The position numbers and the translations under genes were made by a program. Of a stretch of 37,649 nucleotides of DNA, positions 3,897 to 35,582 are shown piece after piece. The DNA is from a virus (Duplodnaviria; Heunggongvirae; Uroviricota; Caudoviricetes), in the IMG/VR virus record IMGVR_UViG_2579778631_000021. One strand, given 5' to 3'. The notes beneath the pieces are model-generated. The model was not told where the DNA came from and made no database searches. It saw only the letters and a program-made list of their open reading frames with translations. The first letter of the stretch is position 1. Each line of letters begins with the position of its first letter.

Positions 3897-4451
3897 TCAC
3901 TCTCCTTTGATGCGAATGCCTGCGGCGCGCTCGGCTTCACTTTGTTCCCAAAACCACTTGTGAAGCTCCATAAGCTTTTCGTCAATCGGTGCATATTTGC
4001 GATTAAAGTAGGCCTGAGCATCTTTCTCAGATTCGTCCGGCAATTCGCCAGGGCCAAACAGTGTGTTATAAATCCATGCCAGTCCGCTCTTAGCGTCGCC
4101 AGTTGCCTGCCATTCGATAATGGCAGCCTGCATGACCAGAATGTTTTTCCCGATTAACAGGTCAAGTTCTTTGTACCGGTTGCGGATGTATGCATTCTCG
4201 CTTTGTAATTTTGCGTTGCGCTTCTCTGCTGCTTCCAGCTCAACACGCAGCTTCCCTACCGTTAGCGCAATATCCTCGTTCTCCTGATCGCGGCTTTTGA
4301 TGTATTGCAGGTTTCTTTCCCGTTCATCCAGCATTGCCAGCACAATCGATGGTGTTACCAGCTCATGGAAAAGGTCCGCGTCAAATCCCCAGTCGTCATG
4401 CATTGCCTGCTCTGCCGCCTCACGCAGTGCCTGATGGTCAATTTTGCTCAC
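3897..4451 (-). CDS. Ead/Ea22-like protein
   Basis: 184-aa ORF MSKIDHQALREAAEQA... with central coiled-coil; resembles Ea22-family proteins of lambdoid b2-region; recalled similarity only. Confidence 0.45.
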   Translation of the reverse strand: MSKIDHQALREAAEQAMHDDWGFDADLFHELVTPSIVLAMLDERERNLQYIKSRDQENEDIALTVGKLRVELEAAEKRNAKLQSENAYIRNRYKELDLLIGKNILVMQAAIIEWQATGDAKSGLAWIYNTLFGPGELPDESEKDAQAYFNRKYAPIDEKLMELHKWFWEQSEAERAAGIRIKGE

Positions 4452-7947: not shown

Positions 7948-8916
7948 TTAGTAGGTTATTTTTGTTGCGAATACTTCGCCTTTTACGATGGCTGTTATGA
8001 TATTTTTAGCAACATCTTCTGATGCACCAACCTTGATAAGGTCAGCAAGTATTTTGTTATTCACTTCTTTCCGGTGAGCTTTATCCTTTGCTCTACGCTC
8101 TTCTTCGTCCTTGATTCTTTTTTCTTCTGCTATTCTGGCTTGCTCTTTTGCTTCAGCCTCGCGACGGATTCGTTCAGCCTCCTCCTGTGCTTTTCTGCGT
8201 TCTGCTTCAATTGCTGCCTGCTTTTCTCTTTCAGCTCGTTCTGCTGCCTCTTTTGCTTCGCGCTGTGCTCGTTGCTCGGCTTCAATGCGTTCACGCTCTG
8301 CACGTTCTGCTGCGGCCTTAGCTTCTGCTTCTCGCCTTGCTGCTGCTTCAATTTCGGCTTTTGCCTTTGCTTCGGCTTCTGCTCTGGCTTTCTCTTCAGC
8401 TTCTCTTTTTAAGCGTTCTTCATGCTCTCGCTTTTCCTGCTCCGCTTTGAGTCTTGCCTCTTCTCTTTGGCGGTCAAATTCGCGATCCATCAAAATAGCT
8501 ATTTCATGGTCAGACTCAATTTGCTTTGCGAGAGCTTCAGCTTCTGCCTTAGCTTCTTCTTCGGCTTTAATCCGCGCCTGTTCTTCCTCATAATCAGTAA
8601 GAGGCTGGCGCGCCTTGGCTTTCAGCTCATCAAGGCGATCGCGCACTGTCTTGCGGTTGGCATCAATTAGCTTTGGAATTTCCTTCAGTTCAGCAACAAG
8701 GTCTTTGCCAAGACCATCGAGATATGTTTTCGTCTGCGCAACTTTATACGCCAGAGAAGCGATCTCCTTTCTGCCCTTTGCCGTTGTGATATCAGGCACA
8801 AAGGACATAACTTCACGTTCAACCTTTTGAAGGATTTCTTCAATCTGGTCGGCAGACTGAAATACAGTCATTGCATTTGCTTTTTCAATAACAACTAAAT
8901 CTGTTACTTCACTCAT
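7948..8916 (-). CDS. Phage protein with long E/A/K/R-rich coiled-coil low-complexity region
   Basis: 322-aa ORF, strong GGAGGA SD; residues about 110-290 are EAKR repeats; function unknown. Confidence 0.5.
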   Translation of the reverse strand: MSEVTDLVVIEKANAMTVFQSADQIEEILQKVEREVMSFVPDITTAKGRKEIASLAYKVAQTKTYLDGLGKDLVAELKEIPKLIDANRKTVRDRLDELKAKARQPLTDYEEEQARIKAEEEAKAEAEALAKQIESDHEIAILMDREFDRQREEARLKAEQEKREHEERLKREAEEKARAEAEAKAKAEIEAAARREAEAKAAAERAERERIEAEQRAQREAKEAAERAEREKQAAIEAERRKAQEEAERIRREAEAKEQARIAEEKRIKDEEERRAKDKAHRKEVNNKILADLIKVGASEDVAKNIITAIVKGEVFATKITY

Positions 8917-9168: not shown

Positions 9169-9750
9169 ATGAACAACTCATGGTGGCAGGAACTAATGCA
9201 TTTTTTCCTGCAAGGAATGACACTTAAACAGTTGATTCATATGCTAATCATCCTAATCATATTGATTATTGTTATGCCTGTAAGCGTAAAAGAATGGATA
9301 AACCTGCATAATCCAGAAATCCTTCCTCATTACTGGATGTATTACATCCTGTTGTTTTGCGTTAGCTATGTGCTTAACGGCGTTGTTAATTCCGCTTATC
9401 ACGCTGTGACTGAAAGAATTGAGATATTCGCTGCTCAGAAGCGCAAATCTAAAGAAGAGAAATACGTGCAAGATTTGTTTGATTCGTTAACTCTTGGAGA
9501 AAGAGCGTATTTGGCATTCGCTGTAGCCGCTAATAACCAGCTAAAGACAGAAAAGGGAAGCCCTGAAGCAATCTCATTGCTCGAAAAAGGGCTTCTTATT
9601 CGGGTACCTTCTGCTACTGGATATCCTGAAATCGACCGTTTTGTTATCCCGGAACGCTATAGAAATGAGTGCTACATTAGGTTTGCTGGGAAGAAAGACA
9701 GTCTTATGGATGAACTTATCGCTCAGGATAAGCATGGCAAAAACAAGTAA
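9169..9750 (+). CDS. SieB-like superinfection exclusion membrane protein
   Basis: 193-aa ORF on opposite strand to pL operon, AT-rich, N-terminal hydrophobic segments; position and size as for lambdoid sieB; recalled similarity only. Confidence 0.45.
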   Translation: MNNSWWQELMHFFLQGMTLKQLIHMLIILIILIIVMPVSVKEWINLHNPEILPHYWMYYILLFCVSYVLNGVVNSAYHAVTERIEIFAAQKRKSKEEKYVQDLFDSLTLGERAYLAFAVAANNQLKTEKGSPEAISLLEKGLLIRVPSATGYPEIDRFVIPERYRNECYIRFAGKKDSLMDELIAQDKHGKNK

Positions 9751-9766
9751 TTAGCAAATTAATTTA

Positions 9767-10039
9767 TCATCTCGCCGTCAGTTGTTTTGATTTCCGGTAG
9801 CCTGCCGCGTAAATGGCTACGTTTGGCAGGCAAATACTTCCACTGCATTCATCTGCCTTCTTGCAGCGAAGGCTTCCGAGTGATGCTGCTTTGTCTGCTC
9901 TGACGCAACCAGAGAGCTTTAGCGCAATTTTTCGCGCCAGTCGCTGTTCTTGCATTGCCTGCTCACGTTGAGCCTGTCTGCGTGCTCTGCGGCGATTTCT
10001 GGCGTTATCGTCAGCCAGATATGTAATGACTACTGCCAT
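9767..10039 (-). CDS. N-like transcription antiterminator
   Basis: First gene downstream of pL and nutL; arginine-rich motif NARNRRRARRQAQREQ near N-terminus; GGAGG SD. Confidence 0.6.
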   Translation of the reverse strand: MAVVITYLADDNARNRRRARRQAQREQAMQEQRLARKIALKLSGCVRADKAASLGSLRCKKADECSGSICLPNVAIYAAGYRKSKQLTAR

Positions 10040-10233: not shown

Positions 10234-10277
10234 AGAATACTGTAGGTATTTTATTGTGTAAATACCCGAGGTATTTA
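10234..10277 (-). promoter_or_regulatory. pL promoter with OL operators
   Basis: Minus strand -35 TTTACA (10257-10262), 17-nt spacer, -10 TATTCT (10234-10239); inverted repeats AATACTGTAGGTATT (10236-10250) and AAATACCCGAGGTATTT (10260-10276). Confidence 0.55.
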
Positions 10278-10406
10278 TTTTTGGTGAAATAATGATAAGC
10301 AAATGAATACAAAGGATATTTATTTTTTCGGTGTCTGCTTGTTCAGTGCTTTTTATGCGGGATATGTGAAGTGGATCCCGATAGCTATTGCTGCCGGGAT
10401 TATGGG

Positions 10407-10775
10407 TTAGTCAGCGAAGGTTAAGACGAGAATTACCTTAATGATGTCTGCTACAACAGACACGGCCATAGATAAACCAAAGACGATCCAAGCCATAGAG
10501 ATGTCTTCACTACCATCGTATAGAGTTCCGTAATCACTGGTGTAAGGCGTAAATGTCGCGCCTTGATACAATAGGTATAAGCTTGATCCATAGAGGATAA
10601 ATGCAGATATCCCTTGTATTGCCATGATCACCAGAATCATGAAACGAGCTGATCTATGCGCCCAAGCCTGGCTTATTTTTTCTGATAGAGATTTCGCAAT
10701 AAAAGCATGCGCTAAGCCGTAAATTGTTGAGATTGCCAACATCCCCAAAAAGCTTGCTATAGCGGTTCCAACCAT
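10407..10775 (-). CDS. Small polytopic membrane protein in rexAB position, co-transcribed with cI
   Basis: ATG at 10775 with AAGGGG SD (TTG at 10796 overlaps cI stop); about 122 aa with 3-4 hydrophobic helices; lies between cI and OL. Confidence 0.6.
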   Translation of the reverse strand: MVGTAIASFLGMLAISTIYGLAHAFIAKSLSEKISQAWAHRSARFMILVIMAIQGISAFILYGSSLYLLYQGATFTPYTSDYGTLYDGSEDISMAWIVFGLSMAVSVVADIIKVILVLTFAD

Positions 10776-10792
10776 AATCGCCCCTTGCGTGA

Positions 10793-11509
10793 TCAAACCA
10801 GCCTTAGTTTTGTCTCAATTGCAACGCCTATAATCTTGCAGTTTCCATTGATTGGCACGAGAGGCCATGCAGGATTAAGTCCCTTGAGGTATTTATTTCC
10901 GCCGTCGATTATCAGCTTCTTGAATGTTGCTTCGTTAGAGTCAGAAAGTTTTGCTATGACCAAGCTGCCGTTGATCGCCTCCCTTCCGGTATCGAAAAGA
11001 ACGAATGTTCCCTCTGGAATGCTTAACCCAACCGGTGCCGTCATTGAATCACCTTCCACTTTAAGCCAGAACGCATTACCTTGAATATGCGCGTCAGACT
11101 CAAGCCAAACATCTATGTCTTTAATGGTGTATGGTTCGCATGCTTCACACCACGAGCCAGCCTGGATACTGCTTAACACCGGATACCTCTTTCCTGCTCT
11201 GTATTCCCCTGCATACCTTACGTTGGCATCGCTCTTAAGGCTTTCTGCCTGTTCTGCAACCTTGGCAGCAATTGACTGGCTAAAATCAGCAATTGAGACT
11301 TGCAACAATCGTGCAAAACCAGATGCAACCTCAACGTTTAGCGCGTTTCTGCCATTAAGATAATGCCCTACCGCTCCTTGGGTGATACCCAGTTCATCAG
11401 CGATTGAGTATTGGGTTATTCCCAATTCTTTCTTTTTTGACTCATACAAAGCCTTAAGACGCTTAGCGTCTTCGAGCTGTTCTGTCGTCAGTGATTTTTT
11501 ATTTTCCAT
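10793..11509 (-). CDS. cI: CI repressor (HTH N-terminus, S24 LexA-like autocleavage C-terminus)
   Basis: 238 aa; N-terminus MENKKSLTTEQLEDAKRLKALYESKKKELGITQ resembles lambda cI; C-terminal GDSM and FKKL catalytic Ser/Lys motifs. Confidence 0.9.
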   Translation of the reverse strand: MENKKSLTTEQLEDAKRLKALYESKKKELGITQYSIADELGITQGAVGHYLNGRNALNVEVASGFARLLQVSIADFSQSIAAKVAEQAESLKSDANVRYAGEYRAGKRYPVLSSIQAGSWCEACEPYTIKDIDVWLESDAHIQGNAFWLKVEGDSMTAPVGLSIPEGTFVLFDTGREAINGSLVIAKLSDSNEATFKKLIIDGGNKYLKGLNPAWPLVPINGNCKIIGVAIETKLRLV

Positions 11510-11544: not shown

Positions 11545-11586
11545 AATACCCTAAGTATTGATTGCTTTGAATACCTGTAGTATTCT
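11545..11586. promoter_or_regulatory. OR operators with pR (and probable pRM on opposite strand)
   Basis: Inverted repeats AATACCCTAAGTATT (11545-11559) and GAATACCTGTAGTATTC (11569-11585); pR -35 TTGATT (11558-11563), -10 TATTCT (11581-11586); minus-strand TAGAAT close to cI ATG suggests near-leaderless pRM. Confidence 0.6.
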
Positions 11587-11615: not shown

Positions 11616-11810
11616 ATGATTCGAATGACACTTGCCGATTACGCCAAAATCCATGGACAGGCTAAAGCAGCCAGTGACTTTGGTGTAATCCAGTGCGCTA
11701 TCAGCAAGGCCATTCTGGCAGGCCGTAACATCATGGTTACGGTAAAGCCTGATGGCAGTGTGATTGGAGAGGAAGTTCGTCCTTTCCCAAGCAACAAGAA
11801 AAACAAATAG
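11616..11810 (+). CDS. cro: Cro repressor
   Basis: [62 protein letters not shown] strongly resembles lambda Cro; GGAGAG SD. Confidence 0.85.
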
Positions 11811-12231: not shown

Positions 12232-12876
12232 ATGACATACGAAAATGACAAATTCCAGGTTCTGAAGAGCATGAAGGTGCCAGATGATTTTAAATCAAAT
12301 GGCTTTGTTTATGTGCTTTCGAATGAGTGCATGCCAGGAATTTATAAGATTGGGATGACTAAGCATTCACCAGAAGTTAGGGCTAAAGAAATTTCAGCCT
12401 CTACTGGCGTTCCTAAGCCATTTAAGGTGATAGCAGCCTTTCATTCAAATAATCCCGCATCAGATGAAAAACTCATTCATAAAGCCTTTGCAAAAGAGAG
12501 GCTTAGTGATAATCGAGAGTTTTTCAAGCTTGAAGATAATGATCTTTCTGAATCTCTAAATGAAATAAGGGCGCTGGTTGGCCCTGAAAGAAATGGCGAG
12601 ACGGCAGAATACGCAATTTACGACTCATTCATTTCTTTTCGCCATGAAAATGAGCTTGATCTTAATGAGGAGCTTATAGAGCAAGGTCTGGGTAGTGTAG
12701 TTGGTCATCTTCCTGCGGTGAAAAATTTCCTTATTCGCGCCGGAATTGCTTACGCGAAGCAACTGATAAGCAAATATAACTCATCGATAGTTATTAATAC
12801 AGATGGCAGTGTGGTGATGGTTAAGTCTCTTGAAGCCCAATGCTTTGATGCGGAGGTTGGAAATGAGCCTGGCTGA
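12232..12876 (+). CDS. T5orf172 (MUG113/GIY-YIG-like) domain protein, moron between cII and O
   Basis: N-terminal GFVYVLSNECMPGIYKIGMTKHSPEVRAKEISASTGVPKPFKV matches the T5orf172 signature; CAGGAG SD; AT-rich codon usage. Confidence 0.6.
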   Translation: MTYENDKFQVLKSMKVPDDFKSNGFVYVLSNECMPGIYKIGMTKHSPEVRAKEISASTGVPKPFKVIAAFHSNNPASDEKLIHKAFAKERLSDNREFFKLEDNDLSESLNEIRALVGPERNGETAEYAIYDSFISFRHENELDLNEELIEQGLGSVVGHLPAVKNFLIRAGIAYAKQLISKYNSSIVINTDGSVVMVKSLEAQCFDAEVGNEPG

Positions 12877-35200: not shown

Positions 35201-35461
35201 TTAGCTGCTGTCTTTTTTATATAGCTCTTTGAGCGTATCAAAGACAATTTTCTTAACCATATCAGATTGTTGTTCTGCCATACGCTCTGCATCGTCAATG
35301 TAAACTGATGCAGAGCTTTGTTTAGCCAATGATTCTTCAATCGCTGCAATTATCTCTGAGTTCAGCGACCTGTTATTCATCTTCGCGCGCTGTTTAATTT
35401 TCGCGTGGAGTTCATGCGGAAGTCTCAAGTGAAACTGCGCCTCGTCGTATTTGCTGTACAT
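35201..35461 (-). CDS. mnt: Mnt-like ribbon-helix-helix repressor
   Basis: 86 aa from MYSKYDEAQFHLRLPHELHAKIKQRAKMNNRSLNSEII...; resembles P22 Mnt (RHH N-terminus, C-terminal DAERMAEQQSDMVKKIVFDTLKELYKK). Confidence 0.75.
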   Translation of the reverse strand: MYSKYDEAQFHLRLPHELHAKIKQRAKMNNRSLNSEIIAAIEESLAKQSSASVYIDDAERMAEQQSDMVKKIVFDTLKELYKKDSS

Positions 35462-35582
35462 CCTTGATGCCTCACCAGTTGGGTGGAATGGCATCGTAAC
35501 CTACTGGATAAATACTCAATAGTACCATTTCGGTATGTAATCATATCATGGTTGCATCATATCATTCGTCTGGAGCAATGAA

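Follow-up and report, generated by a model that had tools for sequence, protein, structure and literature searches.

The HK620-type immunity module and its cargo gene

The stretch of DNA analyzed here (the window, 37,649 nucleotides in length) carries one small minus-strand ORF, between cI and OL/pL, as a sequence-only reading of the window had noted. The ORF spans positions 10407 to 10796 and gives a protein of 129 aa if read from a TTG codon (10794..10796) that overlaps the cI stop, or of 122 aa if read from an ATG at 10775, 17 nt past that stop; both starts had been pointed out, and both are seen in the sequence. The TTG was rejected. Because its seven-codon extension is not conserved, because in the Salmonella homologue a TAA in the same frame immediately precedes the ATG, and because a Shine-Dalgarno sequence, AAGGGG (10781..10786, minus strand), sits 5 nt upstream, we take the ATG at 10775 to be the real start. 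The coding sequence is then 369 bp long (10407..10775, minus strand) and closes with a TAA stop at 10407-10409. A Shine-Dalgarno sequence of the AAGGA type (AAGGA or AAAGGA) is kept in the Salmonella and Hafnia-like loci.

The encoded protein is 95.8% identical to the HkaS protein of coliphage HK620 (AAK28867), for which the HK620 record gives the label “unknown” (the genome paper is Clark et al. 2001). It is matched over residues 1 to 122 of 122 by PHROG 6534, also labeled “unknown function” (E = 1.7e-78), and the identical protein is in NCBI as a “hypothetical protein”, clustered with AAK28867 at 90%. As a sequence the ORF is not new: it is already annotated both as hkaS in HK620 and as PHROG 6534. 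By sequence identity and position, we identify the window ORF as hkaS, the one gene that the HK620-type immunity module carries as cargo.

The gene upstream of hkaS in the operon encodes the cI repressor (10793..11509, minus strand; 238 aa), which has HTH_3 and Peptidase_S24 domains according to Pfam and is 99.6% identical to HK620 cI. Pattern matches and the HK620 annotation place the OL operators at 10236-10250, 10261-10275, and 10306-10320 (minus strand, within 10234..10320), and the same evidence, mapped onto the window, places OR2 and OR1 at 11545-11559 and 11570-11584 (no strand assigned). The operator pattern AATAC-N4-RGTATT gave 10 strand matches at five palindromic sites, compared to 0.92 expected by chance. 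One more operator-like sequence, within hkaS at 10606-10620, is two mismatches from the consensus and outside the one-mismatch list, and was judged to be a chance resemblance. A promoter scan found a pL-like promoter, TTTACA-17-TATTCT, reading from 10262 to 10234 on the minus strand, away from hkaS. The first pL gene is the N antiterminator (9767..10039, minus strand; Pfam N_peptide), and cro (11616..11810, plus strand; Pfam Cro, coordinates mapped from HK620) belongs to the same module. The neighboring gene at 9169-9750 encodes a SieB homologue (PF14163, E = 1.1e-25).

With OL, the pL-like promoter, and N beyond it, hkaS sits exactly where phage lambda carries rexA-rexB, in agreement with the proposal that a single gene here occupies the rexAB slot. 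The slot is empty in P22 and in some relatives of this cI, and other prophages have different cassettes in it. Genes of the lambdoid cI-to-OL slot are made in every lysogenic cell. The suggestion that such genes are classically exclusion or abortive-infection factors agrees with what is documented for rexAB and bstA: the cI-to-N slot has been described as a frequent location of accessory (moron) genes, and bstA as co-transcribed with cI (bioRxiv 10.1101/787010).

The architecture of the region is likewise consistent with the proposed co-transcription of cI and hkaS. Only 17 nt separate the two genes, no terminator-like site was found on the minus strand between them, and in the HK620 record tIMM (“termination of cI transcript”) is downstream of hkaS. 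Immediately past the gene, no canonical intrinsic terminator was found; there is a stem-loop just 3' of the stop codon (10375..10400, minus strand; centroid -13.7 kcal/mol in RNA folding), largely retained in sequence in alignments with HK620 and the Hafnia-like locus, and since it has no U-run it is not a canonical intrinsic terminator. The lytic promoters, pL and pR, both read away from hkaS and so should not transcribe it. The source of a cI-hkaS transcript would then be OR3/pRM, just upstream of cI, in the lysogen, and pRE during the establishment of lysogeny, with hkaS presumably using a ribosome-binding site of its own on the mRNA shared with cI.

Distribution and selection

The hkaS gene is also present in phages HK140, mEpX2, and HK630 and in Stx2c phages, with the same cI just upstream and OL beyond it. 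Identity to the window protein is 95.8 to 99.2% in 15 of 16 phage records and 91% in HF4s; the window allele differs, for example, at L10, M51, and S93/M94. Among 5,426 complete E. coli genomes, 146 (about 2.7%) carry hkaS with an HK620-type cI, the cI search having returned 146 records at an identity of at least 95%; O145:H28 and O111:H8 strains are among the carriers. The gene also occurs in Salmonella and Enterobacter, and in the Salmonella contigs and those with a Hafnia-named variant it again lies directly downstream of cI. Homologues of the same length, 122 aa, reach down to 54% identity, and in rare variants the N terminus is scrambled. The family is very narrow.

In every case hkaS was found within one module, (N)-OL-hkaS-cI-OR-cro, and never with any other set of cI, cro, and operators. 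The whole unit from OR through cI and hkaS to OL is present in 79 of 80 related IMG/VR loci, with cro linked in 79 and N in 77 of the 80. The search of homologous prophages for co-varying partners that had been suggested was carried out on these 80 loci and returned nothing beyond cro, N, and cII, which suggests that HkaS acts either alone or with host factors.

Over a synonymous divergence that is saturating, the dN/dS ratio of hkaS is 0.15 to 0.2. All 82 of the E. coli copies examined are intact, the length and start codon are kept down to 54% identity, and the Shine-Dalgarno sequence is kept at 54 to 60% identity. The dN/dS ratio, the intact copies, and the 122-aa homologues together show that hkaS is a real gene under purifying selection. 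Polymorphisms are much more often non-synonymous in hkaS (25 non-synonymous to 22 synonymous) than in cI (6 to 39; Fisher p = 6e-5), and the non-synonymous changes in hkaS are conservative and fall mainly in the transmembrane segments. This pattern looks more like relaxed constraint than like an interaction surface in an arms race.

Predicted structure and relatives of HkaS

Hydropathy analysis predicts three transmembrane segments in HkaS, at about residues 3 to 27, 45 to 70, and 93 to 121, and an AlphaFold2 model agrees with this three-helix topology (pLDDT 90.7). The earlier estimate of three to four helices was thus too wide, no fourth helix being predicted by either method. A basic loop at residues 28 to 44 and an acidic one at residues 71 to 92 imply that the N terminus is outside and the C terminus inside, and HkaS is thus predicted to be an inner-membrane protein with a periplasmic N terminus and a cytoplasmic C terminus.

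The first segment (TM1, 10695..10769, minus strand; AF2 helix at residues 2 to 29) has 32% invariant columns and is, together with TM2 (10566..10643, minus strand), the least conserved part of the protein, although TM2 includes the invariant residues Q54 and S65. The predicted cytoplasmic loop between them (10644..10694, minus strand), with a short AF2 helix at residues 31 to 38, has a mean pairwise identity of 73% and a positive-inside set of charges, with K28, K33, R41, and R44 against E32. The predicted periplasmic loop (10500..10565, minus strand) is rich in Tyr and Gly, appears to form a beta-hairpin (AF2 strands within residues 78 to 86), and contains D81, D87, E90, and D91 and not one Lys or Arg. 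It also carries the invariant motif QGATF.xY.S.YG..Y.G; 55% of the loop's columns are invariant, and no other segment has so few non-synonymous polymorphisms. TM3 (10413..10499, minus strand) holds the invariant residues D110 and K113; it and the loops are the most conserved parts of HkaS.

Relatives outside the narrow HkaS family were sought with Pfam, NCBIfam, PADLOC, PDB sequences, and fold comparison, and none was found. Likewise, neither 1.84 billion proteins, scanned exhaustively with HMMER, nor the GTDB species-representative genomes yielded a relative beyond the family, and the HkaS profile had no match among PDB sequences at E ≤ 10. None of the 5,027 models of PADLOC-DB v2 matched the window protein at E ≤ 1 or four other members at E ≤ 10. 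Neither the annotated Sie PHROGs nor the SieB model (PF14163) matched HkaS.

It had been remarked that the protein does not resemble lambda RexB, and every comparison that we made supports this: BLASTP gave an E value of 9.2, hhalign a probability of 0.3%, and the RexB models of Pfam and PADLOC missed the HkaS members scanned while recovering lambda RexB itself, as a positive control, at 8.5e-92 and 8.6e-61, respectively. Homology to P22 SieA was rejected as well (hhalign probability 0.3%), and the transmembrane protein of the LF82 phage Perceval, encoded near that phage's cI, has no similarity to HkaS. A Pfam match to TssN (E = 0.048; 13.5 bits, below the cut-off of 30.3) is noise from hydrophobic segments and was rejected. 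The exhaustive HMMER scan also matched a protein of 5,949 aa (P0014) at E = 2.8e-7, through nine repeats of a motif of about 18 aa (ATFQTYSSGYTTLYEWKG); since its score is summed over near-identical repeats, we did not take it as homology.

Possible functions and comparison with known systems

The position and architecture of hkaS make it a reasonable candidate for a defense or exclusion gene. In the literature searched, we found no report of its function, expression, or phenotype, nor of exclusion by lysogens with HK620 immunity. Tentatively, and short of calling it probable, we prefer the reading that HkaS is a stand-alone exclusion factor that blocks phage genome entry at the membrane. The protein would then protect the lysogen against other, heteroimmune phages, interfering at the inner membrane with genome entry in the manner of Sie proteins, and its conserved loops and the polar pair D110/K113 in TM3 may bind a conserved component of the envelope or of the entry route. 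The small, membrane-only design of HkaS, the precedent of SieA, and the variable, accessory nature of the slot all favor exclusion. Against it stand the conserved loops, which imply a conserved and perhaps host-encoded partner and would fit a role outside defense equally well, and the narrowness of the family, which one would not usually expect of a defense with wide use. The failure of the PADLOC and Sie PHROG searches, the polymorphism pattern, and the want of a canonical terminator after the gene also count against it.

A role unrelated to phage attack is rather less likely in our estimation, and still a serious candidate. Here HkaS would be a membrane protein made in the lysogen that serves the phage life cycle or host fitness, for instance by modulating a host protease, transporter, or sensor and thereby affecting how lysogeny is established or how stable it is, or else induction or the tolerance of stress. 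The conserved loops would suit a conserved host partner, expression from pRE as lysogeny is established (as the architecture suggests) would suit such a role, and RexA and RexB have been reported to help lysogens pass into lytic growth (bioRxiv 10.1101/2021.04.19.439022). Strict co-inheritance with one set of cI, cro, and operators points the same way, but linkage of that kind is expected of any gene between OL and OR and does not imply functional coupling. Furthermore, the slot is empty in P22 and in some cI relatives, so the switch itself can work without hkaS.

It is unlikely, by our assessment, that HkaS is an abortive-infection effector, a one-gene analogue of RexB. Such a protein would form an oligomeric gated pore or channel, triggered by an infecting phage to depolarize the membrane so that the cell dies before progeny are made. 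The slot and orientation shared with rexB are in accord with this, as are the invariant polar residues within the transmembrane helices (Q54, S65, D110, and K113), and other characterized genes of the slot, RexAB and BstA, act by abortive infection (for BstA, PMC8585504). However, there is no gene for a RexA-like sensor and no other linked partner, HkaS lacks sequence or profile similarity to RexB, and it has three transmembrane helices rather than four and no sizeable cytoplasmic domain with which infection might be sensed.

More doubtful again is the bolder proposal that HkaS is a one-gene anti-phage device of a new fold, which both senses and stops the phage and replaces RexAB functionally. 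Sensing would then fall to the invariant periplasmic hairpin or to the cytoplasmic loop, and arrest would come from closing the entry route at the inner membrane or from gated depolarization.

We consider it very improbable that HkaS gives immunity-like protection from a membrane-damaging toxin, such as a bacteriocin that forms pores or an externally acting holin. Immunity proteins of the E1 colicin type have three helices in about 110 aa, similar in size and helix number to HkaS. The membrane orientation of ImmE1 is, however, the opposite of that predicted for HkaS; no toxin gene is linked to hkaS; and no Pfam colicin or microcin immunity family matched the window protein at E ≤ 1 or the four other members at E ≤ 10. 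Finally, the selection analysis largely refutes, and leaves scarcely credible, the notion of a functionless ORF decaying or hitch-hiking within the immunity region, which would suit the very narrow family, the relative excess of non-synonymous changes over cI, and the scrambled N termini of rare variants, but not the low dN/dS ratio, the 82 intact copies, the retention of length, start, and Shine-Dalgarno sequence at 54 to 60% identity, or the confident AF2 model.

RexAB and BstA have both come from the cI-to-OL slot of lambdoid prophages, and hkaS is carried by several Stx2c-converting phages as well as by the model phage HK620. If HkaS does act in exclusion, a very small membrane protein that is an orphan in sequence would join the known exclusion factors, with a bearing on the prediction of phage host range and on phage therapy against strains that carry hkaS. 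If it instead modulates lysogeny or host physiology, hkaS would offer a new case of a passenger of the repressor operon with a role outside defense.

Like lambda RexB (PF15968), HkaS is a small polytopic protein predicted to lie in the inner membrane, encoded on the cI strand between cI and OL, and it shares with RexB, which is expressed in the lysogen, a location in the immunity operon. RexB has four transmembrane helices and forms the membrane part of RexAB, an abortive-infection system by which T4 rII and other phages are excluded through membrane depolarization. In contrast to RexB, HkaS has 122 rather than 144 aa and no sequence or profile similarity to it, and a gene for a RexA-like partner is absent, with a gap of 17 nt between cI and hkaS and no further gene before OL.

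Another protein encoded by one accessory gene following cI is BstA of the Salmonella prophage BTP1, a P22-like prophage in which the gene fills the cI-to-N slot. Its role in defense is proven; BstA is reported to localize where phage DNA is replicated and to work through abortive infection (PMC8585504), and it differs from HkaS in not being a small membrane protein.

T4 Imm and HK97 gp15 are blockers of DNA entry at the inner membrane, of the same kind as SieA; our comparison of HkaS with these two was made through annotated PHROG and Pfam families. SieA itself, from P22-like prophages, is located in the inner membrane and blocks the step of DNA delivery across the periplasm and inner membrane (PMC10883804). 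In contrast to hkaS, sieA is expressed outside the cI operon, from a promoter of its own in the immI region. With P22 SieA, HkaS has in common that it is a small protein, predicted in its case to be in the membrane, that has no enzymatic domain and would act on its own.

Layout and predicted expression of the immunity region

Overall, the window is a P22-like (Lederbergvirus-type) prophage, with a lambda-type integrase gene at 1419-2489 and a tailspike gene with a P22 head-binding domain from 35583 onwards. On the minus strand, 10793-11509 encodes a cI-type repressor of 238 aa (HTH_3 and Peptidase_S24 domains), upstream of the hkaS ORF, which occupies 10407-10796 on the same strand. The sequence-only reading had placed an ORF directly after cI, in the rexAB slot, and both points are confirmed: hkaS stands alone between cI and OL/pL, whereas the same interval in lambda holds rexA and rexB. 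Read from a TTG, the ORF encodes 129 aa; read from an internal ATG at 10775, 17 nt past the cI stop codon, it encodes 122 aa. The true start is the ATG, since a Shine-Dalgarno sequence, AAGGGG, precedes it by 5 nt, an AAGGA-type motif is kept at the equivalent site in the divergent loci from Salmonella and the Hafnia-like variant (named Hafnia paralvei), and an in-frame TAA directly 5' of the ATG in the Salmonella locus means that the TTG extension cannot be conserved.

Operator copies with the consensus AATAC-N4-RGTATT are found downstream of hkaS (10236-10250, 10261-10275, and 10306-10320) and upstream of cI (11545-11559 and 11570-11584), which amounts to 10 strand matches where chance would give 0.92, and the operator sequences are conserved across the Salmonella and Hafnia-like loci. 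A pL-like promoter (10262 to 10234) leads away from hkaS to the N antiterminator gene (9767-10039). The HK620 GenBank record gives the order OR3-OR1, cI, hkaS, tIMM ("termination of cI transcript"), OL3-OL1/pL, nutL, N. By consensus the third OL operator-like site is 10306-10320; the HK620 OL3 maps to window positions 10282-10298, and tIMM maps to 10295-10325, overlapping the consensus site, and this annotation may need to be revisited. The sequence AATACAAGGGATATC (minus strand, 10606-10620, hkaS codons 52-57) equals OL3 at 13 of 15 positions; with two mismatches to the operator consensus it falls outside the one-mismatch list and is probably a chance occurrence.

No terminator-like site was found on the minus strand between cI and hkaS. 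Given this, the 17-nt gap, and the direction of pL and pR, both of which face away from the gene, we infer from the architecture that the only evident sources of hkaS transcription would be pRM in lysogens and pRE while lysogeny is being established. A stable hairpin without a U-run follows the hkaS stop codon (10375-10400). The interval between cI and N is a common accessory (moron) site, and bstA of BTP1 is co-transcribed with cI (bioRxiv 10.1101/787010); in the LF82 prophage Perceval, a transmembrane protein two genes past cI is reported to be expressed in the lysogen 81-fold over the prophage background (PMC9928086). Such published transcriptomics support, by analogy, the general principle that accessory genes are expressed with cI.

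Linkage to cI and variable neighboring genes

In all contexts examined, hkaS lies directly 3' of an HK620-type cI, with a gap of 17-20 nt, and before OL and N. The adjacency is kept on Salmonella contigs (cI 86% and HkaS 60% identical) and on contigs of the Hafnia-named variant (95% and 81%). Among complete E. coli genomes, hkaS is present in 146 of 5,426, and a search for the HK620-type cI returned 146 records at ≥95% identity. The whole OR-cI-hkaS-OL unit is found in 79 of 80 IMG/VR loci, the last ending at a contig edge. A search for co-varying partner genes, proposed in the sequence-only reading, found none across these 80 loci beyond the immunity-module genes cI, cro, N (77/80), and cII; sieB (9/80) and the genes for replication and recombination all vary from locus to locus. 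hkaS thus travels as the only passenger gene of one immunity module, which is shared among P22-like, lambda-like, and Stx phages by movement between them. The linkage by itself does not show functional coupling to cI, since it is expected of any gene between OL and OR.

The slot between cI and OL is variable in content. It is empty in P22 and in one of the E. coli prophages whose cI is related; another of these prophages has a 103-aa soluble ORF there. Epsilon34 has two orphan genes there "like rexA and rexB" (PMC2629481). Two E. coli lambdoid prophages whose cI proteins are related in the C-terminal domain (L092, 3235-4736; L093, 3052-4460) carry a two-gene cassette encoding a DUF6932 protein and a 305-310-aa hypothetical protein, which is a further uncharacterized candidate. 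Perceval (OV696612, 33309-35674) has two genes after cI in a layout resembling Rex: the first is a 340-aa ORF, and the second encodes a membrane protein of 168 aa that contains several hydrophobic segments and is unrelated to HkaS.

Elsewhere in the window, a 214-aa ORF with T5orf172/MUG113 domains (12232-12876, plus strand; E ~1e-16), between cII and replication gene O, looks like an inserted accessory gene, since only 7 of 80 related loci have it. The pL operon contains an ORF of 322 aa (7948-8916, minus strand), extremely rich in Glu, Lys, and Ala, that had no Pfam matches and occurs in 16 of the 80 related loci; another E. coli prophage (L095) has a 322-aa gene at a similar position labeled "TolA" by PGAP. 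The tailspike gene is closely preceded by a lone Mnt/Arc-like repressor gene (35201-35494, minus strand). The space between the two has no long ORF, and so no arc, ant, or sieA; the region looks like a reduced immI region compared to the P22 layout.

The HkaS family, its topology, and selection

The sequence-only reading had named the gene a candidate for an undescribed defense or exclusion function; the ORF has long been annotated, with function unknown. By tblastn, 16 phage records contain it (91-99% identity), among them HK620, HK140, mEpX2, HK630, a pair of Stx2c-converting phages, and EHEC podophages; the HK620 record names it hkaS, product "unknown," and the protein aligns over its full length with PHROG 6534 ("unknown function"; E 1.7e-78). 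The identical protein occurs in NCBI on 216 contigs as a "hypothetical protein," and all named members of its cluster are "hypothetical" or "HkaS protein."

The family is narrow. A word-indexed search of 5.8 billion proteins returned 11 clusters, from E. coli, the Hafnia paralvei-named variant (81%), and Salmonella (60% and 54%), with Enterobacter among the members, and a profile search with HMMER, run exhaustively over 1.84 billion cluster representatives, yielded a single full-length cluster plus one fragment and a spurious repeat match. No HkaS was found in GTDB species-representative genomes or among PDB sequences; Pfam, NCBIfam, and PADLOC gave no matches for the window protein or the divergent members scanned, and fold searches returned only generic helical bundles. 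A 5,949-aa protein (P0014) has nine copies of ATFQTYSSGYTTLYEWKG at residues ~3900-4300, resembling ATFTPYTSDYGTLYDGSE of the HkaS periplasmic loop, which we judge to be a short-motif coincidence amplified through repetition.

Three to four transmembrane helices had been proposed; hydropathy supports three (residues ~3-27, 45-70, and 93-121) and not a fourth. The 28-44 loop has K28, K33, R41, and R44 against one acidic residue, and the 71-92 loop has D81, D87, E90, and D91 and no basic residues. By the positive-inside rule, the N terminus and the 71-92 loop are predicted to be periplasmic and the 28-44 loop and C terminus cytoplasmic. The AlphaFold2 model built with the family alignment is confident (pLDDT 90.7, pTM 0.77), with helices at 2-29, 31-38, 41-74, and 89-121, a short beta-hairpin at 78-86, and no soluble domain. 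Across divergent family members, invariant columns and mean pairwise identity are 32% and 58% for TM1 (3-27), 47% and 73% for the cytoplasmic loop (28-44), 38% and 56% for TM2 (45-70), 55% and 67% for the periplasmic loop (71-92; motif YLLYQGATF.xY.S.YG..Y.G), and 48% and 66% for TM3 (93-121), where D110 and K113 are invariant. In three rare variants (P0005, P0008, and P0009), the first ~30 residues are swapped for non-hydrophobic sequence before the frame resumes, consistent with paired indels or assembly errors; TM1 would be absent from them.

hkaS is a real gene under selection. Compared with the Hafnia-like allele (81% amino acid identity), its dN/dS is 0.15-0.16 at dS ~0.65, and comparing the Salmonella allele with the Hafnia-like one gives ~0.2; over the same comparisons, the value for cI is 0.03. 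All 82 collected E. coli copies (80 IMG/VR loci, HK620, and the window) are intact and of equal length. Polymorphism is less constrained in hkaS than in cI (22 synonymous and 25 nonsynonymous changes versus 39 and 6; Fisher p = 6e-5), and the amino acid changes are conservative (I/V/L/M, S/T, A/S) and chiefly in transmembrane segments, with only two singleton changes in the periplasmic loop. These data largely refute the idea that hkaS has no function, which we regard as highly improbable.

Candidate function and comparison with exclusion proteins

With the ORF, its position beside cI, and its membrane segments borne out, hkaS is a legitimate candidate exclusion or defense gene, although positive evidence for the defense function proposed from the sequence was found neither in this analysis nor in the searchable literature. 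Since HkaS has no soluble domain and no partner gene, it must act within or at the inner membrane, and would do so through TM3's polar face and the two short loops that are conserved. Our favored reading, held tentatively, is a Sie-type block of phage genome entry, for which P22 SieA, an inner-membrane protein sufficient alone for blocking DNA delivery (PMC10883804), sets the precedent. Across genera the periplasmic loop is nearly invariant, which suggests that the partner of HkaS is conserved and probably of the host, rather than a fast-evolving phage protein; this cuts both ways, fitting equally a non-defense role in lysogeny or host physiology, which we consider possible and somewhat less probable than the Sie-type block. 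Less likely again is a RexB-like abortive-infection pore working without a separate sensor; lambda rexB has rexA beside it, whereas hkaS has no such neighbor. A bacteriocin-immunity-like protein at the membrane seems improbable.

The window also carries a sieB homolog (9169-9750, plus strand; Pfam E 1.1e-25, PHROG 1301 E 6e-124), adjoining N on the opposite strand. It is a separate gene, independent of hkaS, since only 9 of 80 hkaS loci carry it.

The dissimilarity to lambda RexB noted from the sequence held throughout: BLASTP detected no similarity, the Pfam and PADLOC RexB models recognized lambda RexB and missed all HkaS family members scanned, and profile-profile comparison gave a probability of 0.3%. 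P22 SieA was rejected as a relative at the same value (0.3%). HkaS thus appears to lie outside all characterized exclusion families. This lack of homology weakens the proposition that HkaS is one of these proteins and leaves untouched the proposition that it works like one of them. hkaS would be expected to join a class already known rather than to define a novel type of system.
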